A stretch of DNA of 64,000 nucleotides from Gammaproteobacteria bacterium (GTDB lineage Bacteria > Pseudomonadota > Gammaproteobacteria > SG8-11), in contig JAHECY010000010.1 in the NCBI GenBank assembly GCA_024641505.1, forward strand, positions 13,596-77,595, read 5' to 3'. Each line of letters begins with the position of its first letter. Positions within the stretch are counted from its first letter, which is position 1. Of the stretch, positions 804 through 56,098 are shown piece after piece. The notes under the pieces were generated by a model that was not told the origin of the DNA, made no database searches, and saw only the letters and a list, made by a program, of their open reading frames with translations. The position numbers and the translations under genes are program-made.

Positions 804-1078
804 GATAACCACCTTAAAATCAAGTGTTGCCCAGGAAAAATTGCGGTATGGCGGGCTGGGCGCCGTCCATCGATTACGTTACCCTATATTTCAGAGATTT
901 ATCAGATTTCATCCAGAGGCTGGGGGCTTGGATAAAGTCCTGGAAAATCTCCTGAGATTTTGTTGAATTCTAAATCAAAATCCGTGATTCTAGGTAAGCT
1001 TAAATGGCGTCTATTGTACCATTTATTCCACACAATAGTTCTTGTAGAAAGCACATATCAAAACATTACGAGGGTCGT

Positions 1079-3067
1079 ATGCCGTTACCAAACCGGTATC
1101 GCTCGAAATCGTTAATCATGGTCGGTACCTCGGCCATCCTGGCGCTGCTGGGCGCGTTGCTGGCACTGCTGCTGCGCAACCTGGATCAACCGAACATGCC
1201 TCCGGGCGTCAGCCATGACGCGTTCTACCTCCTCGCTTTCATCGGCGTTGTATTAATTGGGCTGGCCACGGTTATCGTCCAACGCACCGGCAGAACCGAA
1301 TCCCTGCTGACTGCCCAGGGCGAACGCATTCGAGCCCTGTATGAAGTTTCCGCACGTTCCGACCTTACTCTGGACGAACAAGTAACCGAAACCTTGCGCC
1401 TGGGGTGCCGCTTGCTGAACATGGAAGTCGGCAAAGTAGGCCGCCTGGACCCGGTGCAAAACACCTCCACCTTTTTGAACACCGTCGCACCAACCGAACT
1501 CGGTCTGCAGCGCGGCATGGTATGGCCCCTGGACAAGACATTCTGCAACATCACTTTCGCCAGCAACGGTCCGATCGCCCTGCACCATATTTCCCAATCG
1601 AATTACCAGCGACATTCAGCCGCGCGTTTTCTGGGCGTACAAGCTTACATCGGCACCACCATCAAGGTACACGGCCAAAAATTCGGCACGTTGAACTTTT
1701 CCAACCGAGCACCGCATACGGAAGCTTTTACCACCCTGGACACGGACCTGGTGAACCTGATGGGAAGCTGGATCAGTGTCATGCTGGAGCGGCAAACCTA
1801 TGAACAGGAACTGGCGCGCGCCAAGGAAACCGCCGAGGCGATGAGCGAGGCGAAAAGCAAATTCCTGGCCAGCATGAGTCACGAAATTCGTACGCCACTT
1901 ACGGCTATTCTTGGCTATTCTGAAATGTTGTTGGACAACAATTCCGGGCCGGAACAACGCGCTCACGATCTGCAGGCCATTATTCACAGCAGCAAACATT
2001 TACAACACATCACCAACGACATCCTCGACTTGTCAAAAATTGAAGCCAAGCGACTGGTACTCGAATACCTGCCGGTATCTCCGGTGCTGTTGCTCACAGA
2101 AGTTCAGGACGTCCTGATCACCCGCGCGCACCAGAAGAAATTAAACCTCAAGGTCGAATACCAGTTACCGCTGCCAAAACATATCATCACGGACGCCACC
2201 CGGCTGAAGCAGATTCTGATCAATCTAATCGGCAACGCCATCAAGTTTACCGAACAAGGGCATGTATCAGTCAGCGTACAGTACCGCAAAGCTTCGCATC
2301 AAATCGCATTTTGCATCACCGACACCGGAGTCGGCATCCGCGCTAGCGATCTCGATCATGTGTTCGACGCGTTTGCCCAGGCTGGATCCGGTACCGCACA
2401 CAGTTATGGCGGCACTGGCCTTGGCCTGAACATTTCCCGGCAACTGGCGCAACGACTCGGCGGGGACATACAGGTGTCGAGCCTGGAACATCAGGGCAGC
2501 ACCTTCACCGCCACGGTCGATATCGGTCCTCTGGGCAATTGCCCGTTGCTGTATGATATCGACGTGGATCAAGTGATCGCCATCGGCAGCGACTACGACA
2601 TCGATTACCGCGGCCTCACCGGAAAAGTGCTACTGGCCGAAGACAGCCGCGAACACCAGGAACTGATCGCCCACTGTATTCAAAAAACCGGCGCACTAGT
2701 GGACGTGGTCAGCAACGGCCGGGAGGCGCTCGAACATGCCGCCAGACACGCATACGATCTGATCGTCATGGACCTGCAAATGCCGGTACTGGATGGCTTA
2801 CAGGCGCTGCACCAACTGCGCGCCGCGAAAAACACGGTGCCGGTAGTGTGCCTGACCGCGCAGGCATTACTCGAGAATCGACAGAACTGCCTGCAAGCGG
2901 GCGCCAACGTTTATCTCACCAAACCGCTGGACATGCAGAATTTTTATCGCGTACTCAAGGACTTTTTACCCACCGGGGGAGTGCCGCTGGACGTCATGGC
3001 TGCGTCAAACCTGCCTCTCAACCTGCCGTGGCATCCAACGGTTGATAAGCAACCTCAACCACTGTAA
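1079..3067 (+). CDS. hybrid sensor histidine kinase/response regulator (N-terminal TM segment, GAF-like sensor, HisKA H-box SHEIRTPL, HATPase_c, C-terminal receiver domain)
   Basis: ORF 1004..3067; H-box [19 protein letters not shown]-boxes [12 protein letters not shown], receiver with conserved D in [13 protein letters not shown]; preferred start ATG 1079 (GAGGG 5 nt upstream), the stretch 1004-1078 is AT-rich and looks non-coding. Confidence 0.85.
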
Positions 3068-3533
3068 AGACCTGCTCACCAGCGGCCAACTGCACGTGAA
3101 TTTCATCATCCACGGCATGCTTCAACAAAGCCCTGGCCACCGGGGCATCCATGCTGATATAACCACGTGTCACGTCGAATTCGTCCGGTCCAACGATACG
3201 ATACACCAGCTCCTTGCCGGCCAGGTCTTCCAGGCGCACCCAGGCGCCGAAGTAGATACGGCGGGTATCCGTTGGCAAATCACAGACCACATGCAATTCG
3301 TCGAGGCGTTTGCCCAGATAGCGCAGCCGGCGGTCGATTTCCCGCAATTGTTTTTTACGGTAAATATATTCAGCGTTTTCAGAACGATCACCCTCCGCCG
3401 CCGCCGCCGTCAAGGCCTCGGTCGCTTCCTGGCGGGTACGCCAGAGGTCCTGCTGCTCCCGGGCCAGACGCGCATATCCTTCCGGCGTTATGTACGGGGA
3501 GCCCCTAGACTCAGGCGGTCGATAACGTCCCAT
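3018..3533 (-). CDS. greB: transcription elongation factor GreB
   Basis: Gre-family hallmarks [10 protein letters not shown]...[26 protein letters not shown]...[12 protein letters not shown]; internal Met chosen as start (ORF track extends upstream to 3611 with non-Gre-like N-extension). Confidence 0.85.
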
Positions 3534-3659
3534 AAAACTCCTCCCAATCTGACTGCTTGCGCTCAACTTAACACTCTGTAGCCGCCAAGGACACCGCCAA
3601 CCTGCGTTCATGCCTTTAATAACTTAGCGGCAAGCTCAGGATCGAAAACTTATCCTTCA

Positions 3660-3673
3660 TTGATCCAAATCAA
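3660..3673 (+). promoter_or_regulatory. FNR/ANR binding site, perfect consensus TTGAT-CCAA-ATCAA, centred ~72 nt upstream of mini-ORF 3739
   Basis: Sequence ttgatccaaatcaa read directly; matches TTGAT-N4-ATCAA FNR/Anr box; lies in greB/fnr intergenic space immediately upstream of fnr locus. Confidence 0.6.
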
Positions 3674-3738
3674 GGCAATTCCCGGCAGCATGGCGATAAT
3701 AGATCTCAGTTCGACAATTTCTGATAAGGGAGATGCCT

Positions 3739-3828
3739 ATGGATGCAATGTCGTTAACGGTAGCCCTGTTTGGCTCGGCTTTTATGCTGCTGATCATTGG
3801 CCTGGCTACCGACGCTAAAAAGCCTTAA
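3739..3828 (+). CDS. 29-aa hydrophobic mini-protein (MDAMSLTVALFGSAFMLLIIGLATDAKKP), single predicted TM helix, candidate FNR-regulated small membrane protein
   Basis: ATG with AAGGGAG Shine-Dalgarno 6-7 nt upstream; single hydrophobic helix; FNR box upstream; followed by hairpin aacgcgac-N14-gtcgcgtt plus T-tract (3887-3935). Confidence 0.4.
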   Translation: MDAMSLTVALFGSAFMLLIIGLATDAKKP

Positions 3829-4008
3829 GAATCACCCCCGATCCTTATTGCTCAATGAGATATTTAAGCTCTTAACTCCAGCCTGAACAACGCGACCCCC
3901 CCATGCTAATCGTCGCGTTGTTCTTTTTTCTTTGCTGGATAGAAAAGCCCTGCAGCATTCGGTACAATAAGCTTAGATAATCCGTTATATATTAAATTAC
4001 TAATAAAG

Positions 4009-4758
4009 ATGTCCGCCGTTAGTCGTAATCCAGTTGATCTCCTCCGGGGGGATAAGCGCGTCGAATGCCAAAATTGCGCCCTGTTCCGCATATGTTTGCC
4101 GAAACATGTCAGCGCCGCCGATTTGTCTTCCCTGGAAGCCATCATTATCAAACGCAAAGCGACACCACGCGGTCAGCCCCTGTTCAAGGCGGGCGATAAA
4201 TTCTCGTCGATTTACGCCGTACGTTCGGGCGGCATCAAGACCTACCGCACCGACGCCGAGGGTAACGAGCAAGTTTGCGGCTTTCACCTGCCGGGGGAAC
4301 TCGTGGGCCTGGAAAGTATCATCAGCGACACCAGTATCAATAGCGCGAAAATGCTCGATACCACGAGCGTGTGCGAGATTCCGTTTCCCGAGCTCGAAGC
4401 GCTGCTGCCACGCATGCCGCAATTGCAGAAAGAATTAACGCGGTTGCTCAGCCGAGAGATCGTCACCAGTCAGTGGCAACTGAGCCTGCTGGGCAGCAAG
4501 AAGGCCGATGCCAGGGTTGCCGCGTTGTTGTGTAATATTTCCGATCGGCTGGAACAACGCGGCTATTCCGCCACCCGCTTTTCCCTGCCCATGTCACGCA
4601 GCGATATCGGCAACTTTCTGGGCCTGACCATTGAAACCGTGAGCCGGAGTTTTACCCGGTTGCAGCGCAAGGGGCTGCTCAGCGTCAAAGGTCGAATGGT
4701 CACCCTGTTGGACTTGGACAATCTGCGGCGACTGGCAGGCCACACCACATTGCATTAA
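4009..4758 (+). CDS. fnr: FNR/ANR-type global anaerobic regulator (Crp/Fnr family)
   Basis: N-terminal Cys cluster C-X2-C-X5-C (CQNCALFRIC) plus fourth Cys in EQVCGFHLPGE, cNMP-binding fold, C-terminal HTH (RSDIGNFLGLTIETVSRSFTRL). Confidence 0.9.
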   Translation: MSAVSRNPVDLLRGDKRVECQNCALFRICLPKHVSAADLSSLEAIIIKRKATPRGQPLFKAGDKFSSIYAVRSGGIKTYRTDAEGNEQVCGFHLPGELVGLESIISDTSINSAKMLDTTSVCEIPFPELEALLPRMPQLQKELTRLLSREIVTSQWQLSLLGSKKADARVAALLCNISDRLEQRGYSATRFSLPMSRSDIGNFLGLTIETVSRSFTRLQRKGLLSVKGRMVTLLDLDNLRRLAGHTTLH

Positions 4759-4776: not shown

Positions 4777-4815
4777 GATCCGCGCCGCGGATCGGCACTT
4801 CAACTTTTCTTATAA
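4777..4815. terminator. candidate bidirectional rho-independent terminator between convergent fnr and MMPL genes
   Basis: Perfect inverted repeat gatccgcg-c-cgcggatc followed by T-rich run cttcaacttttcttataaatttttc. Confidence 0.5.
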
Positions 4816-7094
4816 ATTTTTCGATCCAACACAAACAACAGCGGTGGCAAAAAGAAAAAATCGGCGATCCAGGCATAAGCCAGGGTGACGGACAACAACA
4901 ATCCAGTGACCCAGGTCGGGCCGAAATGGGAAGCAGCCAGCACCAGAAAGCCGGCCACCAGCACTACCGTGGTAATGGTCAACGCCGTACCCACGGTCTG
5001 AAAGGCATAGCGCATACCGTCAACCAGATCCAAACCGCGCTCCCGACGCGCACGGATGTACTTGCTGAGAAAATGCACCGTGTCATCGACGACGATACCC
5101 AGGCTCATGCACAACACCACCGAGGCGGAAAGATCGACCCGACCATTAACATAACCCCAAGTGCCATAGGTAAGCGCCGCTGGCGCCAGATTGGGAATCA
5201 GACTGACCAGCCCCAGACGCACCGAACGCAGCGCAACCATCAGCACCAACGAAATCAGCAGCAAAGCCAACAGGCTACCCTGCACCAGACTGTGTATATT
5301 GCGATGATTGATGTGGGCGAACACCATGTCCATGCCCGTGCCTTCGCCCACCTTAATGGTCGGCGCATGCGCGCGTAACCAGTCATGGGCCAGCGCATCC
5401 AGCTCCAGAAGCCGTTCCGAATCCGTTATCTTGATGGACGCTGACAACTGAGTCGCGCCGTGCCCGGAATCCACCATGTTCTCCAGACTAAGCTCCGGCG
5501 GCAAACCCAGCTCGTATAAAAAATACAGCTGAAACGCCAACGCCCGGTTATCAGGCACCCGATACCACTCCAACGAATCATTGTGCAGGGTTTGATTGAG
5601 GCGTTTCAGCAGATCCACAATGCTGCCGACATGCGCAACATCCGGTTGCTGACGCAACCACCGGGAAAAATCATCGAGGGCACGCAGAAATTCCGGATCA
5701 TAGATGCCATCCGCTGCGCCGCTGTCAAAGACATAGCGCATGGTCTGCACACCACCGATATTGTGTTCCACGGCATCCGTTGCCCGCCGCACTTCAAAAC
5801 TGCCGTCGAAATAATCATGCCAGCGCTCAGACAAGACATTACGCGGAATCCCGCTGGCCAGCGCAATGACAACCACACCCATGATCAACAGCAGTTTCCT
5901 GTTATGCTGAATAATCCAATTCGCCAACCGGTCCATCGTGGAACTCGCGCCCTTGCCCGCATGGGAGCTGCCAATATTGAACCATGCCAGCATTGCGGGC
6001 AATAACGTCAATGACAGACAATAGGCAATAAACACACCTACCGCCACCATATTGCCGAGCATGCGATAAGGCGGTGAGTCGCTGAAGTTCAAACACAACA
6101 CACCGATGATCGTGGTAAGACTGGTAATGAATACCGGATTGGCATTGATGCGCAAGGATTCCCGCACCGCGTCACGGCGCTCCTGTCCCAGACGCAGACC
6201 GTGAAAATAACTGATCAGGATATGCACGCAATCGGCCACGGCGATAGTCATGACGATACTCGGCACCCAACCCGCGACCGGCGTCAACACCAGACCCCAC
6301 CAACCGAAAAATCCCATAGTGGCTATAGTGGCGACGCTAATGACCAGGATGATTGCCAACATGCCACGTACGCTGCGTAACAACAGCAGCAGCCCGCCGG
6401 CAATGATCAAATAGCTGAGCGCAACCAGGGTACGCAAATCCTGCCCCACGGCTTCACCGAGAGTAACACCGGCTGTGGCTCCGCCTCCCAACAGGATATG
6501 CACCTCAGGATTTTGCTGCGCGATTCGCGACTGCAACACACGCGCCGCCGCCACGGCTTCATCGGGCGCATGCACCTGAGCTGCCGGCAGGTCCAACTGC
6601 ACCACCACGCCGGTAGCACGCCCGGAGCTCGGCACCAAACGTCCGGCCAGCAACGGTTCAGCCAGTGCCAGCGCGCGAATTTCGGCAACACGTGCCGTGG
6701 TCAGCTGCTCAACATCAGTTACCAGACTCTCGGTATGCAGCACGTCGGCGCGCGCTTCGGTGTGCTGGTAGTTACTCAGGGAATCCACGCGTCGCACATA
6801 GGGCAGATCCCAGGCGACTTCGGTAAGCTCATGAATCAGGCGTAACACCGGCACTGTAAATACGTCGCCGGCGACCGGTTCGATATAAAAATAAATGACA
6901 TCAGTCCTGCCGAATCTATCCTCCAGATCTTCGAAGGCCGCCAGTTGCGGATTATCGGCGCTGAAGTAAACGCGAAAATCGTTGGTAATACCGAGATTTC
7001 GGGCACCATAGGCGAGCAACATGCAAATGGCCATGGCAGCAACCACCACGGTTTTGTGGTGACCGATAACCCAATCACTATAGCGCCGCAACAT
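4800..7094 (-). CDS. MMPL/RND-superfamily exporter (12 TM, two large periplasmic loops; HpnN/MMPL-like lipid exporter family)
   Basis: 764 aa; two repeated 6-TM bundles (e.g. ILVISVATIATMGFFGW..., LLALLLISLVLMVALRSVRLG...) typical of MMPL_fam; operon partner 7165..8289. Confidence 0.8.
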   Translation of the reverse strand: MLRRYSDWVIGHHKTVVVAAMAICMLLAYGARNLGITNDFRVYFSADNPQLAAFEDLEDRFGRTDVIYFYIEPVAGDVFTVPVLRLIHELTEVAWDLPYVRRVDSLSNYQHTEARADVLHTESLVTDVEQLTTARVAEIRALALAEPLLAGRLVPSSGRATGVVVQLDLPAAQVHAPDEAVAAARVLQSRIAQQNPEVHILLGGGATAGVTLGEAVGQDLRTLVALSYLIIAGGLLLLLRSVRGMLAIILVISVATIATMGFFGWWGLVLTPVAGWVPSIVMTIAVADCVHILISYFHGLRLGQERRDAVRESLRINANPVFITSLTTIIGVLCLNFSDSPPYRMLGNMVAVGVFIAYCLSLTLLPAMLAWFNIGSSHAGKGASSTMDRLANWIIQHNRKLLLIMGVVVIALASGIPRNVLSERWHDYFDGSFEVRRATDAVEHNIGGVQTMRYVFDSGAADGIYDPEFLRALDDFSRWLRQQPDVAHVGSIVDLLKRLNQTLHNDSLEWYRVPDNRALAFQLYFLYELGLPPELSLENMVDSGHGATQLSASIKITDSERLLELDALAHDWLRAHAPTIKVGEGTGMDMVFAHINHRNIHSLVQGSLLALLLISLVLMVALRSVRLGLVSLIPNLAPAALTYGTWGYVNGRVDLSASVVLCMSLGIVVDDTVHFLSKYIRARRERGLDLVDGMRYAFQTVGTALTITTVVLVAGFLVLAASHFGPTWVTGLLLSVTLAYAWIADFFFLPPLLFVLDRKIYKKS

Positions 7095-7164: not shown

Positions 7165-8289
7165 TCATATTGAACCGATAATCGCTTCCAGATAAAAAGT
7201 CAATGTCGGTTCAGGCTTGAAATACTGCTCCTCATTGAAACTTATCTTAGGCTGAATCTCAAAGAACAACCAATCCCGACGCGAGGCACGCTTGCGGATG
7301 CGCGCGCCGAAATAATAACCTGTGGTACGGGTATCAGGCTCGGTTTCACCGAACATGCCGGCGTTGAATACCAGCGCATGACGCGGATCAAGCTCATGAT
7401 ACAGGCTGACTCCCTGGGCGTAATTGAACTCATGAGTCTTGTTGGTCCAGATGGCGTTGGCGCTAAAACGCAACAGATCGTTCCAGCCGGTGCGTGTTTC
7501 GATATCGAACTGGGTCGACTCGCCCAGGCCTTTGGCATCATGCCAGAATACCAGCTGAGTAAAGCGAAAACTCCATCCTTGCACCACATCCATGCGCCGC
7601 AGCCGCCCACGTATGAATTCCTGAGGAGGATCCTTCAGCACGACACCGGCGTCCGCATGTACGTTCCATTTACTCGATTCCGTGACCACATAGCGCAGGG
7701 CCGTGGAATAATCGGCGCGACCGCCCGCAAACACCCGGTTCTCCTGCTGCTGACCATCCGTCTGGAATTCCTCTTCCGCGTCGGAAGCGAACAGAATATT
7801 GAGCTTCTTCTCAATCCGCGGCAGATCCAACTTCAGTTTGATACGGCTCACCTCGTCGAAGCCACCGTTGGTATTGGCAACCAGCCCGTAGCCAAAACGC
7901 AGAAAACTGCCGCGTGCTTCTTCATCCAGTCGTTTGTCGCCGAAAAACAGGTCCACCGAATCCACGAAATCCACGAGTTGCGCGGACAAAAAATCATGGG
8001 CATAGTCCAGCATGTTCAGCGCGGACTGCATCATTCCCGGCGCTTCCTTGACGGCATCACTGCGTTCTTCCCCCAGGTCCGCCGACTCCCCGGTCTCCCC
8101 GGTCTCCCCGGTCACCCCGGTCACCCCGGTCACCCCGGTCTCGACGGTCACCCCGGTCTCGATGGGTCCGACGGTCTCGATATCGGCACCACGCTCGGCA
8201 CTGGGCCAAGCCTCGGCAGCGCTCAGGCACGGCACCTGCATCCCGGCCCACAGACAGCCCATCAATATGAAACTGGATCCTCTAGGCAT
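7165..8289 (-). CDS. secreted/outer-membrane protein of unknown function, partner of MMPL exporter; signal peptide ...CLSAAEA; contains (V/E)TG tripeptide tandem repeats
   Basis: 374 aa, N-terminal signal peptide, alternating hydrophobic beta-strand-like segments; 9-bp DNA tandem repeat encodes ETGVTVETGVTGVTGVTGETGETGE. Confidence 0.55.
   Translation of the reverse strand: MPRGSSFILMGCLWAGMQVPCLSAAEAWPSAERGADIETVGPIETGVTVETGVTGVTGVTGETGETGESADLGEERSDAVKEAPGMMQSALNMLDYAHDFLSAQLVDFVDSVDLFFGDKRLDEEARGSFLRFGYGLVANTNGGFDEVSRIKLKLDLPRIEKKLNILFASDAEEEFQTDGQQQENRVFAGGRADYSTALRYVVTESSKWNVHADAGVVLKDPPQEFIRGRLRRMDVVQGWSFRFTQLVFWHDAKGLGESTQFDIETRTGWNDLLRFSANAIWTNKTHEFNYAQGVSLYHELDPRHALVFNAGMFGETEPDTRTTGYYFGARIRKRASRRDWLFFEIQPKISFNEEQYFKPEPTLTFYLEAIIGSI
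8085..8165. repeat. 9-bp tandem repeat ccggtc(a/t)cc x6 plus degenerate copies inside CDS 7165..8289
   Basis: Read directly: ccggtctccccggtctccccggtcaccccggtcaccccggtcaccccggtctcgacggtcaccccggtctcgat. Confidence 0.8.
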
Positions 8290-14424: not shown

Positions 14425-14590
14425 ACCATAACTCCTCGGGAGAGAGTGGCTTTGCCACCGCCGAAGGCGCAACTCGCTCGGAATCGCTCAGGCAAAAGAA
14501 CCGAAGAGATCAGTTGACTCTGGAGAGAGATCAGTTTGCTGATCCGCCGAAGGGGCATACGCTTTCAGGCACAATGGACAGAGGGGCGCG
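14425..14590 (+). ncRNA. glycine riboswitch, tandem aptamers, leader of gcvT operon
   Basis: Aptamer 1: CTCGGGAGAGAG...CACCGCCGAAGGCGCAA...CAGGCAAAAGAACCGAAGAG; aptamer 2: CTCTGGAGAGAG...CCGCCGAAGGGGCA...CAGGCACAATGGACAGAGG; matches the conserved GGAGAG / CGCCGAAGG(A/G)GCAA / CAGGCAAAAGGACAG glycine riboswitch cores; immediately 5' of gcvT. Confidence 0.85.
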
Positions 14591-14650: not shown

Positions 14651-15739
14651 ATGGGCAAGAAAACACCGCTATACGAAGCACATCTTAGTGCTGGCGCCAA
14701 AATCGTGGATTTTGCGGGCTGGCTAATGCCGATTCACTACGGCTCCCAACTTGACGAACACCATTGGGTGCGCACCGGGGCAGGCATGTTCGATGTCTCC
14801 CATATGACTGTGGTGGACCTCAAAGGCGACCGGACACGGGAGTTTCTCCGCGCACTATTGGCCAACGATGTCGACCGACTCACCACCCCGGGCAAAGCGC
14901 TTTACTCCTGCATGCTGCGCCAGGACGGCGGCATTCTCGATGACCTGATCGTCTACGGCATGGCGGCTGACTGGTACCGTATGGTGGTCAATGCCGCCAC
15001 CCGGGAAAAAGACCTGGCCTGGATGCGCACGCAAGCGCAACCTTACGGCATCGACATCACCGAACGCACGGATCTGGCCATGATCGCCGTGCAAGGCCCG
15101 GCGGCACGGGGCAAGGTTCACGCCATTCTCGGCGCCCGCGCCGGTGCACTGCCAGACTTGAAACCCTTCAACGCCCTGGCGCTAAACACGTGGTTTATCG
15201 CGCGTACCGGCTATACCGGCGAGGACGGTTACGAAATCATCCTGCCCGCGATTGACGCCGTGGACTTCTGGCAACAGTTGCGCAATGCCGATGTCCACCC
15301 CTGCGGCCTCGGCGCCCGCGACACCTTGCGCCTGGAAGCCGGCATGAATCTTTACGGCACCGACATGGACGAATCGCTGACCCCGCTGGACTGCGGCCTG
15401 GCCTGGACCGTCGCTTTCACACCGGAGGACCGGCAGTTCATTGGCAGAGACGCTCTGGAAGCGCTCAAACAATCCGGCCTGCGCCACCGTTTTGTAGGCT
15501 TGATCCTGGAAGAACGCGGGGTATTGCGCGGTCATCAAAAAGTGTTCATCGACGGCAAAGAAGTCGGCATCACCACCAGCGGCACCTTTTCGCCCACTCT
15601 AAAACAAGCGATCGCCATGGCGCGGCTATCGGTCCTTGATGGGCATCATTGCGCAGTGGAAATTCGGGGCAAGCTGCTGCCCGCAAGAATCGTTAAACCG
15701 GTGTTCGTGCGCAACGGCAAGTCGTGCGTGGATGCCTGA
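14651..15739 (+). CDS. gcvT: glycine cleavage system aminomethyltransferase T protein
   Basis: 362 aa; GcvT signatures (MPIHYGSQLDEHH, GYTGEDGYEI, LRLEAGM). Confidence 0.95.
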   Translation: MGKKTPLYEAHLSAGAKIVDFAGWLMPIHYGSQLDEHHWVRTGAGMFDVSHMTVVDLKGDRTREFLRALLANDVDRLTTPGKALYSCMLRQDGGILDDLIVYGMAADWYRMVVNAATREKDLAWMRTQAQPYGIDITERTDLAMIAVQGPAARGKVHAILGARAGALPDLKPFNALALNTWFIARTGYTGEDGYEIILPAIDAVDFWQQLRNADVHPCGLGARDTLRLEAGMNLYGTDMDESLTPLDCGLAWTVAFTPEDRQFIGRDALEALKQSGLRHRFVGLILEERGVLRGHQKVFIDGKEVGITTSGTFSPTLKQAIAMARLSVLDGHHCAVEIRGKLLPARIVKPVFVRNGKSCVDA

Positions 15740-28444: not shown

Positions 28445-28951
28445 ATGAAAAGATTTGTTTATTTCTTATTACTCGCGAGCTCCCTGTCCAGCCACTCCAT
28501 GAGTGCCAACACCGACAGCCCCATCGCCGAACACCGGGGCGACATTCTGTTTGCCAGCCAACTGTGCAATGGTACATCTGAAGGTACCCATGCGCGTCTG
28601 GTGACCAGTCAGGAGCAACTCGCCGCGGTCTACGCCCAACTGCAGAGCAATACACTGGGGGCCCAACATCCAGTTCCGGTGATGGACTTTAGCAAAGAAA
28701 CTATTTTATTCATGGAAATGGGGCAACAACCCACCAGCGGCTACCAATTAGCTTTTGACTCGCGCAAGCCGATACAAGTGTATGGCGATCATATGCAGAT
28801 TACCGTTACCTGGCTGGAACCCGAAAAAGGCGCCATAACCGCACAAATGATTACAACGCCCTGCGTTTTGGTGCGTTTTCCCATGGGAGAATATCCTGCG
28901 ATACGGGTATTGGATCAGAACGGTAAACAACGGTATCCTGCGGGATCTTAA
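28445..28951 (+). CDS. PrcB_C-like (protease-complex subunit PrcB family) secreted protein, paralog 1
   Basis: Signal peptide; shares block G(Q)QPTSGYQLAFDSRKPIQVYGDHMQITVTWLEP...TTPCVLVRFPMGEY with downstream paralog. Confidence 0.45.
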   Translation: MKRFVYFLLLASSLSSHSMSANTDSPIAEHRGDILFASQLCNGTSEGTHARLVTSQEQLAAVYAQLQSNTLGAQHPVPVMDFSKETILFMEMGQQPTSGYQLAFDSRKPIQVYGDHMQITVTWLEPEKGAITAQMITTPCVLVRFPMGEYPAIRVLDQNGKQRYPAGS

Positions 28952-29012: not shown

Positions 29013-29453
29013 ATGGCGGCGACACCTCTGGCGATCCATAAAGCCACCATGGCTTTCATCAGTCAGCAGTACAAAAGCAATCGCACCACGCCCGGCGCAT
29101 TATTGATCAAGAGCAAAGGGGAGCTGGAAATACTGTTCAAGGATCTGCAGCTTAAAAGCGCGGCAGCCCAGGGTTTGTTACCGGACATCAATTTCACCAC
29201 CGATGTCATTCTTGCCATCAGCATGGGCCAGAAAAACAGCGACGGATACAAGATTTCCTTCGATTCCAGCAAGCCCATCGAAGTGTATACCGACCATATC
29301 GCGGTACAAATCGTATGGAGCGAACCCATGTCCGCAACGCCGCAAAAAATGACTACGCATCCCTGTGTTTTAATCAAGCTCCCCGTCGGCAACTACACGC
29401 GCATCAAACTTTACGATCAAAGCAAAAAACTCCGATACGTCGCAAATTTTTGA
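29013..29453 (+). CDS. PrcB_C-like protein, paralog 2
   Basis: GQKNSDGYKISFDSSKPIEVYTDHIAVQIVWSEP...THPCVLIKLPVGNY; tandem duplicate of 28445..28951. Confidence 0.45.
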   Translation: MAATPLAIHKATMAFISQQYKSNRTTPGALLIKSKGELEILFKDLQLKSAAAQGLLPDINFTTDVILAISMGQKNSDGYKISFDSSKPIEVYTDHIAVQIVWSEPMSATPQKMTTHPCVLIKLPVGNYTRIKLYDQSKKLRYVANF

Positions 29454-29777
29454 CCCGGATCAAAAAACGGTTACCCGTAATCACGCCATACCCGCAACGC
29501 CCAGTCAGCAACATGACAATACGCCGGTTCCCGACCATCCGCGCCCCTCTATGCATGATGCAGGATACCGCCCCGGCACCCACATGATCAGTTGACGACA
29601 TCGCTATATGTAAAATCTATCACCGCCAAAATCTGTTGGACATATTAAATCGCTATTTCCTGGTACTGCTATTTATTAGTTGCTCGTATACAATCAAAGA
29701 ACCGAGGCATCAATAACTCTTAACTCGTTTAGTCAACAATTCGCCTTAATTTAACTCGATTTCCCCAGGACGACATA

Positions 29778-30545
29778 ATGCCCAACATCCTTTTCAAGAA
29801 TGACGAACACTTGGTAATTTCTTTTTCGAATCTGGTGAAAGGCGAAGGCATTCAATCAAACCAGTTACTGATCAAGAACGGACACCACTCCGCACTGTTT
29901 GATCCCGGTGGGGATTTGACTTACATGCCGCTGAACATGGCAATCACACGCTATGAACCCATTCGTGAACTGGACTACGTCGTCGCCACGCATCAGGACC
30001 CGGACATCATCTCATCGTTCAATAAATGGCTCATGTACAGTGACGCTACCATCGTGGTGTCCAAATTGTGGGAACGCTTCATGCCGCACCTGATTCCCGG
30101 TTTCATGGAGGCTTCCGGCCGGGGTCGGGTGATGACCATTCCGGATCAGGGCATGATTCTTGATGTGGGCAACTGCAAGATCAAGGCGTTACCCGCGCAT
30201 TTCCTGCACTCCGTTGGCAATTTTAATTTTTACGACCCGATCAGCAAGATTTTGTTTTCCGGCGATATCGGCGCCTCCCTGGTAGACAGCGAGCCGGAAC
30301 GGCCAGTACGTGATTTCGAGAAGCACATTAAAAAAATGTACGGCTTCCACCGCCGCTACATGGTTTCCAACAAGGCGTGCCGTTTGTGGGTCGGCATGGT
30401 CCGCAACCTGGACATTGAAATGATATTACCGCAACACGGCCGCCCGTTCGAAGGCAAGGAGATGGTGAATAATTTTCTGAACTGGTTCGAAAAACTGGAG
30501 TGCGGCATCGACCTGATTACCGAACAATACTACCAGGTCCCTTGA
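29778..30545 (+). CDS. MBL-fold metallo-hydrolase family protein (possibly a di-iron, flavodiiron-like core)
   Basis: Metallo-beta-lactamase-type metal motif VVATHQDPDII and downstream His/Asp ligands; preceded by ~190-bp AT-rich region. Confidence 0.6.
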   Translation: MPNILFKNDEHLVISFSNLVKGEGIQSNQLLIKNGHHSALFDPGGDLTYMPLNMAITRYEPIRELDYVVATHQDPDIISSFNKWLMYSDATIVVSKLWERFMPHLIPGFMEASGRGRVMTIPDQGMILDVGNCKIKALPAHFLHSVGNFNFYDPISKILFSGDIGASLVDSEPERPVRDFEKHIKKMYGFHRRYMVSNKACRLWVGMVRNLDIEMILPQHGRPFEGKEMVNNFLNWFEKLECGIDLITEQYYQVP

Positions 30546-53014: not shown

Positions 53015-54607
53015 ATGAAACTCTGGATTATTACATTGCCTGCCCTGGTGTTATTGCTGGGCCTGTCCACCGCCGTCGCCGACCGTGCGGATGTGTATGC
53101 GCGCATGGATGAAATCGCCTTGAGCGCCCCCCCGGAGGTCACTGGTTCGGTCGCAACCCTGACCGATTACCTGATCTCCGAAGCCAAAACCGACCTGCAG
53201 AAAGCCCGGGCTATCTACCGTTGGATCACCCACAACATCGCGTATGACGCTAATGCCTATGTCAGCGGCCACATTCGGGACGTCAATATCAAACCGGAAT
53301 CCGTGCTTAAAAACCGCGTAACAGTGTGTGACGGCTATGCGCGCCTGTTTGAAGCCATGGGTAAACGCGCCGGTCTGGGCGTGGAACGGATTACGGGCAC
53401 TGCCAAGGGTTATTCTTTTGATCCCGGCGCCGATTTAAAACGGGCCAACCATGCATGGAACGGCGTGGAACTTGAAGGCGCATGGTATCTGGTCGACGCC
53501 ACCTGGGGCGCCGGCTATGTTGATCCCATGAGCCACGAGTTTGTGCCCGCATTCAATGAGTTTTTCTTTTTGACCACACCGGATCAGTTCAAGTACAGCC
53601 ATTACCCGGATCAGCAGATCTGGCAACTTGTGGAAAAACCGGTGTCGTTCAAGGAGTTCGCATCTTACGTGGACATCCGGCCAGCTTTCTTTCAGAATCG
53701 CATGGGGCTGGTGGATGCAACGAACAATACCTTGCGCACCAAAGGCGACCTGGATATCCGCTTGAAAGCGCCGCCGGAAACACTGGTCACGGCCGTGCTC
53801 GTCAAAGACAATACGGCTCTGCCCAGTAATCATCAGTTTTGGCAACGCACCGGCGATACTTACCTGGGCAGGCTGGCGCTGCCAGGCGCAGGCCATTATG
53901 AACTGCAGATATTCGCCAAGGCCAAGACCGATCCCGGCAAGTATCCGGTTGCGCTGATTTACCAAATCGACGCCAGTGGCGCTTCGCAACGCACCTTCCC
54001 CCTGCTGCACCCGGCATTTTTCGACTACGGCCTGGAACTCGTTTCCCACCGGGAAGGAACCATCGAAACTCAATCTCAGGTCGATATCATCCTGGCCAAC
54101 ACCGGCAACGCCTTCATCACTGCGCGCCTGCTGGAACGGGGAGAAACACTACCGTTAAATCTCATCGCCATACAGCGCAAGGCGGACACGGTCATCGCCA
54201 GGGTATTGCTGCCCTTCAAAGGCAAATACCAGCTACAATTGTTTGCCTCAGCCCTGGCGGACCAGCCGGCGCAACTGGCGGCTGAATACACGATTCACAG
54301 CAGCACCGGCGCCGGCAAAGCGGCAAGCTTTCCACTGTTCTTCAGCGCCTACATGCAACAGAGCGCGGAATTGTTGCAACCCATGCACGGCACGCTTAAA
54401 AGCTATCAGGAAGAGGAATTCAAGATTATGGCACCGGGCGCCAGCCGTATCGCCGTGGTCATCAACAATGAATGGCACTATCTAACCAAGCAGGATGACT
54501 TGTTTACCGGCGTGATTCCCGTGACCAGCGGCGTGGTAAAACTGGTCGGCAGTTTCGGCGGCAACTCGGACCAGTTTCAGGTACTGGCGCAATTTGACGC
54601 CATCTAG
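53015..54607 (+). CDS. secreted transglutaminase-like cysteine protease superfamily protein
   Basis: Signal peptide; catalytic triad context VCDGYARLF (Cys), NHAWNGV (His), YLVDATWG (Asp). Confidence 0.8.
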   Translation: MKLWIITLPALVLLLGLSTAVADRADVYARMDEIALSAPPEVTGSVATLTDYLISEAKTDLQKARAIYRWITHNIAYDANAYVSGHIRDVNIKPESVLKNRVTVCDGYARLFEAMGKRAGLGVERITGTAKGYSFDPGADLKRANHAWNGVELEGAWYLVDATWGAGYVDPMSHEFVPAFNEFFFLTTPDQFKYSHYPDQQIWQLVEKPVSFKEFASYVDIRPAFFQNRMGLVDATNNTLRTKGDLDIRLKAPPETLVTAVLVKDNTALPSNHQFWQRTGDTYLGRLALPGAGHYELQIFAKAKTDPGKYPVALIYQIDASGASQRTFPLLHPAFFDYGLELVSHREGTIETQSQVDIILANTGNAFITARLLERGETLPLNLIAIQRKADTVIARVLLPFKGKYQLQLFASALADQPAQLAAEYTIHSSTGAGKAASFPLFFSAYMQQSAELLQPMHGTLKSYQEEEFKIMAPGASRIAVVINNEWHYLTKQDDLFTGVIPVTSGVVKLVGSFGGNSDQFQVLAQFDAI

Positions 54608-55380
54608 GGATTCAGATCACGGTACACCAGTTCCGCCGCGCGCAGCAATGCGGCTTTATCCACTTCCCCTGACAATGCATAACCCACGGATCCGTCGATC
54701 CAGTAGAACACAGCGACTTTTTCCTGCGAACTGTATCGAAAAGCAGTGGCTTCCGCACCGTGTGCCTCCTGAGTGCGTACATATAAGGTCAAGCGCCGGC
54801 CACCGGCATCCTGATACATAAACTGGGCCGCGGGTCGGTCCTGATCCGGCAACAGGCGACCGCCAACCAAATCATACCCTATTGCCTGGAGATGCGGCAC
54901 GCGCACCTCGGTGCCCAATCGTTTCGACAGCCAGTTGACCAGATGCGCTTCCTGTTCCACCCCCACTTCCACCGGATGCAACACTTCCGGCGTATACACC
55001 ACATGCGCTATGGCGGCGCGCTGCGGCAAGGTCGCCAGCGCCGGTAATTCCGACTGTGCCATCCGGTAACCATGTAGCAACCAACCACCTGCACCACCGA
55101 CCACCAGCCAGGTCACTGCCGCCGCCGCGGCCCACGGTAAAGCGGGACGCCGATGACGCCGCGCCGTCACTTGTAATTGGCTCGGCACCGGTTCATCGAG
55201 CACGGCATCGAACATGGAATGCATCAGCGCATTTTGCTTGCGGTAACTCTCCAGGCGCACGACGTCTTCCGGGTGTGCCGCCAACCACTCCGCCACGGCC
55301 TGACGCCGATTATCATCCAGCCTGCCATCCACGTAGGCATGCAATTCATCTTCGCGTATGGGTTTACTACCGTAACTCAT
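54604..55380 (-). CDS. anti-sigma factor (membrane-spanning, N-terminal anti-sigma domain)
   Basis: N-terminus IREDELHAYVDGRLDDNRRQAVAEWL typical of RskA/ChrR-type anti-sigma; central TM; ATGA overlap with upstream ECF sigma. Confidence 0.75.
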   Translation of the reverse strand: MSYGSKPIREDELHAYVDGRLDDNRRQAVAEWLAAHPEDVVRLESYRKQNALMHSMFDAVLDEPVPSQLQVTARRHRRPALPWAAAAAVTWLVVGGAGGWLLHGYRMAQSELPALATLPQRAAIAHVVYTPEVLHPVEVGVEQEAHLVNWLSKRLGTEVRVPHLQAIGYDLVGGRLLPDQDRPAAQFMYQDAGGRRLTLYVRTQEAHGAEATAFRYSSQEKVAVFYWIDGSVGYALSGEVDKAALLRAAELVYRDLNP

Positions 55381-55880
55381 TTTACTCTCCGCAATACCGG
55401 TACGGGTTCGCCCGCCATCAATACCCGCAACTTCTCCCGACCGCGAGCGAGGCGCGACATAACCGTACCCATGGGTATACCCAGGACGCGTGCCGTTTCC
55501 TCATAACTCAATTGTTCCAATCCCACCAGCAATACCACCTCCCGAAACTCGTCGGGCAAGCGCTTGAGCGCCGACACCAGATCCCGGATCTGTATTTGCT
55601 GCTCCTGGCCGGGCGTGACCTCGATATCCATATGCCCTGACTCTTCGCTCATCGAAATCGTGGTCAGACGCCCGGCCCGAACTTGATTGACGAAGGTATT
55701 GTGCATGATGGTAAACAACCAGGCGCGCAGATTGCTGCCGCGTTGCCACAGGGAAAACTTGTGCAGCGCGCGTTCCATGGTGTCTTGCACCAGATCGTCG
55801 GCGGCGGTGACATCACCCACCAGGGCGCGAGCATAGCGCCGCAATCGCGGAATATGCACGGCAATATCATTGGCATCCAT
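55377..55880 (-). CDS. ECF-family RNA polymerase sigma factor (sigma-70 regions 2 and 4)
   Basis: Region 2 DLVQDTMERALHKF...AWLFTIMHNTFVNQVR, region 4 LSYEETARVLGIPMGTVMSRLARGR; start at internal Met 55880. Confidence 0.85.
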   Translation of the reverse strand: MDANDIAVHIPRLRRYARALVGDVTAADDLVQDTMERALHKFSLWQRGSNLRAWLFTIMHNTFVNQVRAGRLTTISMSEESGHMDIEVTPGQEQQIQIRDLVSALKRLPDEFREVVLLVGLEQLSYEETARVLGIPMGTVMSRLARGREKLRVLMAGEPVPVLRRVK

Positions 55881-56098
55881 AGACAAAGAGTTTACTCCAG
55901 GCGAAATCACTTGCGTAGATATGGAACCCATAACCCAGCGACAATGTACGGTATTTCATGGGATGCTCCAATAATTAATCAACTCAGACATAGCAATCGA
56001 CAACTACTCTCGGAGCAAACAGAAATTAATGGGGTTTATTCCCGCATTTTGAAAATTATTCCGGCGGGTAATACGCACCCTCAGTCCGGAAAGGGGAA

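Follow-up and report, generated by a model that had tools for sequence, protein, structure and literature searches.

Most of what is known about FNR regulons comes from cultured enterics and pseudomonads, and genome annotation tends to miss both small proteins and small RNAs (sRNAs). Among the transcripts that have been described, FnrS of the enterobacteria is induced by anaerobiosis, depends on Hfq, and is made from a class II FNR promoter as a short transcript ending at an intrinsic terminator. Its action is described in PMC8915982.

A second relevant transcript is PhrS of Pseudomonas aeruginosa, which is ANR-dependent and 212–213 nt long and contains a conserved ORF of 37 aa that is translated into a protein of unknown function (PMC9308961, PMC8395346, PMC12612679, PMC6700203). 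Between this ORF and the terminator lies the creg, a conserved, single-stranded base-pairing element of ~12 nt at nt 169–182, and a 3′ fragment of ~50 nt that remains when the first 160 nt are deleted suffices for regulation (PMC9308961, PMC8395346, PMC12612679, PMC6700203). Other transcripts with a small ORF and a base-pairing region on one molecule are AzuCR, SgrS/SgrT and Spot 42/SpfP of E. coli; the AzuC protein, for example, is 28 aa long and membrane-associated (PMC8915982, PMC12612679). Finally, CydX, CydH/YnhF, CcoM and CcoQ are proteins of ~29–37 aa with a single helix that belong to low-oxygen respiratory complexes and went unannotated for a long time (PMC4742706, PMC12648545).

The locus described here lies directly upstream of an fnr gene in a 64-kb stretch of gammaproteobacterial DNA, referred to below as the window. 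The region is best explained as a self-contained, FNR-activated small gene with a predicted transcript of ~225 nt, a peptide product and a terminator of its own, a reading to which we assign a probability of about 0.72. It is carried by the parts themselves, their fixed spacing, the purifying selection on the peptide and the covariation of the terminator hairpin, which a comparison of related sequences establishes. The mini-gene was previously unclassified, and the kind of gene to which it would belong, that of FNR/ANR-activated small transcripts encoding small proteins, is already known.

Anatomy, distribution and promoter of the unit

The features of the region, in their order along the window, are as follows.

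3018–3533, minus strand: greB, the divergent upstream neighbour (context, outside the unit)
3660–3673, plus strand: predicted FNR-binding dyad TTGATCCAAATCAA, an exact TTGAT-N4-ATCAA
3695–3700, plus strand: −10 hexamer GATAAT, read from the sequence, 21 nt 3′ of the box
3726–3732, plus strand: Shine-Dalgarno motif AAGGGAG, 6 nt 5′ of the ATG
3739–3828, plus strand: 29-aa small ORF, starting at ATG 3739 and encoding MDAMSLTVALFGSAFMLLIIGLATDAKKP, with a single predicted transmembrane helix
3872–3884, plus strand: invariant tract TTAACTCCAGCCT (consensus TTRACTCCAGCCY), 13 nt, directly 5′ of the terminator stem
3885–3933, plus strand: intrinsic terminator with a 12-bp stem, a loop whose CCCC is invariant, and TTTTTTCTTT as the tail
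3940–3968, plus strand: sigma-70-like promoter of fnr itself (TAGAAA, 17-nt spacer, TACAAT), downstream of the terminator
4009–4758, plus strand: fnr, an oxygen-sensing Crp/Fnr regulator and, presumably, the activator that acts on the mini-gene promoter

A preliminary description of this DNA, made from its letters, had claimed an exact FNR box, a Shine-Dalgarno motif and ATG opening a 29-codon ORF, a hydrophobic product with one transmembrane segment, and a hairpin with a T-tract as terminator. The present analysis bears these parts out. The box stands where it was placed and is the only exact match in the window, the ribosome-binding site and reading frame are as claimed, the product exceeds the hydropathy threshold for a transmembrane segment, and the terminator is conserved with compensatory pairs.

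Seven closer Fnr proteins (56–72% identity) were drawn from the protein collection, and their contigs were compared upstream of fnr. Six lineages besides the window (L013, L014, L015 (= L016), L017, L018 and L019), with Fnr proteins 58–72% identical, keep the unit of box, gap, ribosome-binding site, peptide and terminator. It is single-copy and syntenic with fnr in 7/7 lineages, and in all loci fnr flanks it at one end, while the neighbour at the other end is either greB or a hybrid histidine kinase. Beyond this group, the element is absent from L020 (Fnr 56% identical), from L021/L022 (Fnr 52–54% identical, with hisB next to fnr) and from L023, a locus with a 70%-identical GreB. Scans of genome and metagenome contigs likewise returned only Fnr relatives of 39–46% identity; these loci had hemN or other genes beside fnr and lacked the element. 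Because it is absent at L020, L021/L022 and L023, the unit is considered to be confined to a narrow clade. On the contigs compared, its distribution is that of a narrow, uncultured gammaproteobacterial clade; all seven lineages come from metagenome assemblies, and the nearest relatives that bear a name are MAGs labelled “Gammaproteobacteria bacterium”.

Exact TTGAT-N4-ATCAA dyads in the 64-kb window are limited to the one at 3660–3673. Dinucleotide shuffles of the window give 0.08 exact dyads expected by chance, with at least one in 8 of 100 shuffles. When one mismatch is allowed, the window holds 4 sites against 2.1 expected, which is not significant. Taken alone, the box is only mildly unlikely to have arisen by chance and is in itself no more than suggestive; its significance derives from its conservation in the six further lineages. 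A box is present in 7/7 lineages, and the forms seen across the relatives are TTGATCCAGATCAA, TTGATCTATATCAA, TTGACTTAAGTCAA and TTGATTTATGTCAA.

The geometry of class II FNR promoters is known from the FNR promoters of E. coli, in which the dyad lies near −41.5 and no −35 element is needed. In the loci compared here, a TAnnnT-type hexamer is found 21–22 nt 3′ of the dyad in 7/7 cases. In the window, the transcription start is predicted at ~3707–3708, which would place the centre of the box at approximately −40.5 to −41.5 and thus in class II FNR geometry. The sequence holds no recognisable −35 for the mini-gene promoter, as expected if FNR occupies that position.

A suitable activator is encoded next door. 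In FNR, four cysteines serve as [4Fe-4S] ligands, and E209, S212 and R213 read TTGAT. The window’s Fnr, which aligns with E. coli FNR without gaps at 46% identity, keeps the cluster cysteines C20, C23, C29 and C122 as well as E209/S212/R213 in that alignment, and it scores 251 bits on NCBIfam NF008365 (cutoff 228). The dyad, the gap of 21–22 nt and the cognate Fnr are together the sequence features of a class II FNR-activated promoter, and we infer that the mini-gene promoter depends on FNR.

It is also conceivable that the box regulates a neighbour, either as autoregulation of fnr (direct or by read-through) or at the divergent greB, with the ORF being incidental. The E. coli fnr gene is autoregulated via FNR sites at its own promoter and offers a precedent; moreover, the box lies in the greB–fnr intergenic region, with as little as 21 nt separating it from the greB ATG in L015. 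The distances tell against this reading. While the spacing to the mini-gene −10 is fixed, the gap between the dyad and the greB ATG is 126 nt in the window, 21 nt in L015, 120 nt in L017 and 78 nt in L018, and the distance between the dyad and the fnr ATG runs from 349 to 643 nt, with the terminator and the fnr promoter in between. The box is kept even where greB is lacking as an upstream neighbour. In L019, greB is missing here and the hybrid histidine kinase (the window’s 1004–3067 gene) directly precedes the box, and greB was not seen at the L013 locus. In addition, a 12-bp terminator with 6–8 U and a separate fnr promoter, whose −10 (GTAYAMT) can be aligned in the relatives, stand between the box and fnr, and the ORF is under purifying selection (see below). 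Control of a neighbour is, on balance, improbable.

Since the −10 gap is fixed but greB and fnr lie at varying distances, the box is assigned to the mini-gene, which, by this pattern of spacing, is the gene it serves. Some read-through into fnr may take place and add positive feedback. The proposal of the preliminary description that the FNR box drives the mini-gene thus finds support at the level of sequence, namely in the fixed −10 gap, the coding signature of the ORF and the cognate residues of Fnr. The same description had named conservation of the box without the ORF as the pattern that would speak against it. No such case was encountered, as box and ORF are both kept in the six lineages.

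The encoded peptide

Relatives of the window carry a GGAG/GAGG-type motif in the position equivalent to its Shine-Dalgarno. An in-frame ATG at 3733 would yield a 31-aa ORF; it abuts the Shine-Dalgarno and is not conserved. The 29-aa ORF was also called independently by a gene caller on a public Logan contig with identical sequence. Across the loci, the length of the ORF is 25–29 codons. Because the L019 peptide starts at the equivalent of M4, residues 1–3 appear to be dispensable. The consensus of the peptide across lineages is MDAM[ST]LTVALFG..F.LL.IGL, and the residues that are invariant in the alignment of the seven peptides are M4, L6, T7, G12, F15, G21 and L22.

Hydropathy supports a membrane location. 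The segment of residues 6–24 in the window peptide has a 19-residue Kyte-Doolittle mean of 2.22, relative to a transmembrane threshold of 1.6 for such means. Values of 1.95–2.65 were obtained across 7/7 orthologues, giving one predicted transmembrane helix each.

Codon statistics were compiled from 21 aligned core codons in the seven lineages. Pairwise differences at codon positions 1, 2 and 3 amount to 175, 50 and 249, and variable columns to 15, 6 and 19 of 21, respectively. At the level of whole codons, 155 differences are synonymous and 162 non-synonymous. NG86 estimates of dN are 0.02–0.54, with dS from 0.41 to >3 (saturated). The remaining two frames are stop-rich or unconserved. As judged from these substitution patterns, the mini-gene ORF is under purifying selection as a protein. 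It is read as translated because of the codon-position pattern together with a dN far below the saturated dS, and translation is in this sense a probable property of the transcript.

Searches for relatives of the peptide were uniformly negative. In Pfam and NCBIfam, no family for the peptide was found at E <= 10 beyond noise, and phmmer and profile searches of the PDB produced nothing relevant. When phmmer was run against 1.84 billion cluster representatives, the peptide matched itself alone. A concatenated query of six peptide variants had no match among 8000 candidates, and an exact look-up returned only two recorded entries, those of the window and of L013. By the measure of these searches, the peptide is a new small-protein family. 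Function is not transferable from known proteins, since no relative was detectable outside the clade. Most likely, the peptide modulates some membrane complex at low oxygen. In three lineages the unit adjoins a hybrid GAF histidine kinase; this protein is one possible partner, toward which the peptide would play an MgrB-like role.

A product of 29 residues with one hydrophobic helix and predicted stress-regulated transcription also calls to mind the type I toxins, such as TisB or Hok, in this case expressed under anoxia. The surroundings of the ORF do not agree with such a role. For example, the gene is single-copy and syntenic beside fnr in 7/7 lineages, and its 5′ leader is short and open with a strong Shine-Dalgarno, rather than long and occluded. 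A scan of the window showed neither an antisense promoter nor an RNA partner, and the peptide is without a C-terminal basic/aromatic cluster. A toxin is therefore regarded as very unlikely.

The terminator and the tract that precedes it

The terminator stem pairs 3885–3896 with 3912–3923 around a loop of 15 nt, and its tail consists of a T-run at 3924–3929 followed by CTTT. A simple terminator scan missed this hairpin because the loop limit of the scan is 8 nt. Across the loci, the stem is 12 bp long and is followed by 6–8 U residues. All of the pair cells in the seven loci are standard pairs (84/84; 100% paired). Four pairs carry compensatory changes: two go from A-U to G-C in L019, one is G-C against A-U in the window, and the fourth goes from C-G to U-A in L014 and L015. 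In 500 shuffles, the observed covariation was never reached, and slid registers collapse. RNAalifold independently recovers the same 12-bp helix, predicts that helix alone, and leaves TTRACTCCAGCCY unpaired, such that the 13-nt tract is predicted to be single-stranded.

The layout of a short ORF, a terminator and then a regulated gene is also that of a transcription attenuator, in which the ORF would be a leader peptide controlling fnr. In this case, however, what is conserved is the amino-acid sequence of the peptide rather than a run of regulatory codons. The hairpin follows the stop codon at 52–67 nt in six of the loci and at 195 nt in L019, a distance too long and too variable for coupling between ribosome and terminator. 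Furthermore, the folds contain no conserved alternative anti-terminator pairing, and the promoter of fnr itself is located 3′ of the terminator. An attenuator is very unlikely.

The three readings weighed up to this point (a box serving a neighbour, an attenuator and a type I toxin) were rejected, as each is contradicted by spacing, conservation pattern or anatomy.

The most unusual feature of the unit is its invariant 3′ tract, which was absent from the preliminary description. The conserved 3′ tract sequence outside the ORF is TTAACTCCAGCC, and from 3872 on, TTRACTCCAGCCYGARCARCG... is nearly invariant in 7/7 lineages. The spacer between the stop codon and the tract, by comparison, cannot be aligned among lineages. 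A covariance model of the 3′ module scores 77–91 bits, once per locus, in 7/7 loci, with no significant plus-strand match elsewhere in the 150 kb searched. The pattern of the 3′ tract is absent from the viral contigs scanned, and blastn against plasmids gave no match.

Terminators are normally conserved in structure rather than sequence. Here, the tract and the CCCC of the loop are invariant while adjacent synonymous sites are saturated, which argues for selection beyond the need of a terminator. Given this pattern, the best explanation for the invariance of the 13-nt tract and the loop CCCC is that the RNA (or DNA) sequence is itself under selection. The tract is a candidate base-pairing seed, by analogy with the creg of PhrS; alternatively, it could be a protein-binding or processing site.

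The main alternative is an account according to which the transcript is purely an mRNA for a small membrane protein and the 3′ tract and hairpin form just a well-conserved terminator/stability element or a site for a protein or RNase, the RNA having no role in trans. Several observations are in keeping with it. The ORF has a strong coding signature, no sRNA family was matched, and searches of the 64 kb and of the neighbouring leaders gave no target for the tract. What fits less well is that, in a transcript whose ORF is saturated at synonymous sites and whose spacer is unalignable, the 13 nucleotides of the unpaired tract and four cytosines of the loop do not vary. We consider this account entirely plausible, if somewhat short of an even chance.

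The target searches can be stated in full. A search of the 64-kb window for the complement of the tract, allowing at most 3 mismatches in 16 nt, found none besides the tract itself. With RNAduplex, the best of 55 gene starts in the 64 kb reached −18.4 kcal/mol, which is weaker than the median best of −19.9 for shuffled seeds. Pairing of the tract with the fnr leader is weak and inconsistent between loci. With the greB leader it is inconsistent as well, with shuffle fractions of 0.05, 0.41, 0.23 and 0.02 at differing positions. The outcome of these searches says little, since they covered 64 kb of one genome.

Proposed mechanism and comparison with known systems

The order of events suggested by the anatomy of the unit would be as follows. 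When oxygen becomes limiting, [4Fe-4S]-FNR, whose gene lies 180 nt downstream, would bind the dyad at 3660–3673. With the dyad centred ~41 bp upstream of the start, FNR would then recruit RNA polymerase to a class II promoter that has a −10 only. The resulting transcript would be monocistronic and ~225 nt long, with a leader of ~31 nt and a strong Shine-Dalgarno, and its translation would give a single-pass membrane peptide of 29 residues. Transcription would end at the strong intrinsic terminator, which would insulate the constitutive-type promoter of fnr. In a further step, the whole transcript or a ~60-nt 3′ fragment processed from it may also base-pair as an sRNA, probably of the Hfq type.

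This last step would make the mini-gene a PhrS-like, dual-function RNA. That the transcript also acts as a base-pairing sRNA is, by analogy with PhrS, a possibility to which we give close to even odds, though on the lower side. In its fullest form, the proposal is that of a second, independently evolved PhrS-type dual-function RNA that provides a low-oxygen regulon with a membrane peptide and an Hfq-type 3′ module, the latter consisting of TTRACTCCAGCC and the hairpin with its C-rich loop. This fuller version is put forward tentatively, with rather less than half of our confidence behind it.

The immediate impact of the unit is moderate, because the clade is narrow and uncultured and the function is putative. 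Nonetheless, it provides an example, supported by comparative genomics, of an unannotated family of 29-aa membrane proteins under predicted FNR control. As the coding part and the putative seed are physically separate, their functions would also be easily dissected by mutation.

With regard to known systems, the mini-subunits of oxidases resemble the mini-gene product in peptide length and in having one transmembrane helix, which is predicted here. The preliminary description had likewise raised the idea that the peptide may be an accessory subunit of a respiratory oxidase or a transporter. Pfam, NCBIfam, and PDB sequence and profile searches showed no similarity to CydX, CydH, CcoM, CcoQ or KdpF. 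Unlike the genes for these subunits, the mini-gene is monocistronic and lies neither in nor next to an oxidase operon. AzuCR, SgrS/SgrT and Spot 42/SpfP differ in being controlled by regulators such as CRP and SgrR, and they have no sequence relationship to the mini-gene. In AzuCR, moreover, the coding and pairing regions overlap, whereas the ORF and the putative seed are separate here. Like FnrS, the mini-gene has a class II FNR promoter (predicted in this case), a short transcript and an intrinsic terminator. FnrS differs in that it is non-coding, ~120 nt long and unlinked to fnr. No match to FnrS or any other family was found in Rfam, even at E = 10, and in particular there was no PhrS match at E <= 10 in the window or L018.

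PhrS itself is the closest parallel. The comparison with it was made by published architecture and Rfam, and the resemblance is one of analogy rather than demonstrated homology. From the map of PAO1, we take it that phrS does not lie beside anr. The mini-gene, in contrast, adjoins fnr, and its ORF encodes 29 aa as opposed to the 37 aa of PhrS. The position of phrS in the PAO1 genome is ~3.705 Mb (PMC9308961). Shared by both are a promoter dependent on an FNR-family regulator, a small conserved ORF, an unpaired tract before the terminator and a length of >200 nt, each of which is predicted from sequence for the mini-gene. Even the placement of the tract is similar, at approximately nt 165–178 of the ~225-nt predicted transcript versus nt 169–182 for the creg. 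This hints that the PhrS-type design of an oxygen-sensor promoter, a small ORF and a 3′ seed arose more than once. If the PhrS-type reading is true, the unit would be a counterpart of FnrS and PhrS from outside the enterobacteria and pseudomonads.

Possible sequence constraint within the mini-gene

The first four codons of the mini-gene ORF, ATGGATGCAATG (window positions 3739-3750 and their orthologues), are free of synonymous substitutions in six lineages out of seven, whereas the codons beyond them vary freely. Such invariance may come from selection at the RNA level on the region where translation begins. The ORF of relative locus L019 lacks the first three codons and starts at the fourth.

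A further peculiarity is seen in relative locus L017 (1100-1131), where there are two copies of the motif CTTAACTCC: one lies inside the conserved tract and the other some 15 nt upstream of it. This pattern suggests that part of the putative seed was duplicated locally.

Neighbouring genes and promoters

In relative locus L015 (1766-1801), only 21 nt separate the FNR dyad from the greB start codon, so that the promoter of greB has to overlap that of the mini-gene or lie antisense to it. With promoters so arranged, FNR binding could repress greB at this locus. The close spacing is not found at the other loci compared.

In three lineages or more, the gene next to the unit on its upstream side encodes a hybrid kinase, with identities of 44-49%; one idea is that the small membrane peptide might act on this kinase:

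Window 1004-3067; L017 2-265; L019 1-996: hybrid GAF histidine kinase that carries a receiver domain

In the relatives, an unannotated protein of 337-378 aa is encoded immediately 3′ of fnr. The window carries a gene for a protein of similar size (374 aa, with no Pfam or NCBIfam match), and here a transporter gene is inserted between it and fnr:

Window 4800-7094, minus strand: HAE3/MMPL-type RND transporter
Window 7165-8289, minus strand: 374-aa protein with a GVTGVTGETGETGE repeat

A possible second FNR site

A near-consensus FNR dyad, TTGACCCGGATCAA, is located at 29450-29463 of the window (also at 29103-29116). It sits where a PrcB_C-like ORF ends, 314 nt upstream of an ODP-family gene; this locus may be a second member of the FNR regulon. 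No well-placed −10 hexamer was seen. The surrounding features are:

Window 28445-28951: first ORF of a tandem pair, with a PrcB_C domain by domain scan
Window 29013-29453: second ORF of the pair, easy to miss because it is shorter than the 150-aa cut of the ORF overview
Window 29778-30545: ODP-family (oxygen-binding di-iron protein) gene, 3′ of the dyad

From their translations, the two tandem ORFs look paralogous.

Other features of the window

In the region 54604-55931 (minus strand), a sigma factor gene is followed by a 258-aa ORF that has no Pfam match and may encode its anti-sigma factor:

Window 55377-55931, minus strand: ECF-type sigma factor gene

Elsewhere, a riboswitch precedes gcvT (14651-15739), with gcvPA and gcvPB next in order:

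Window 14427-14583: tandem glycine riboswitch aptamers (67.7 and 38.1 bits)

A tandem glycine riboswitch ahead of gcvT-gcvPA-gcvPB is an ordinary layout.
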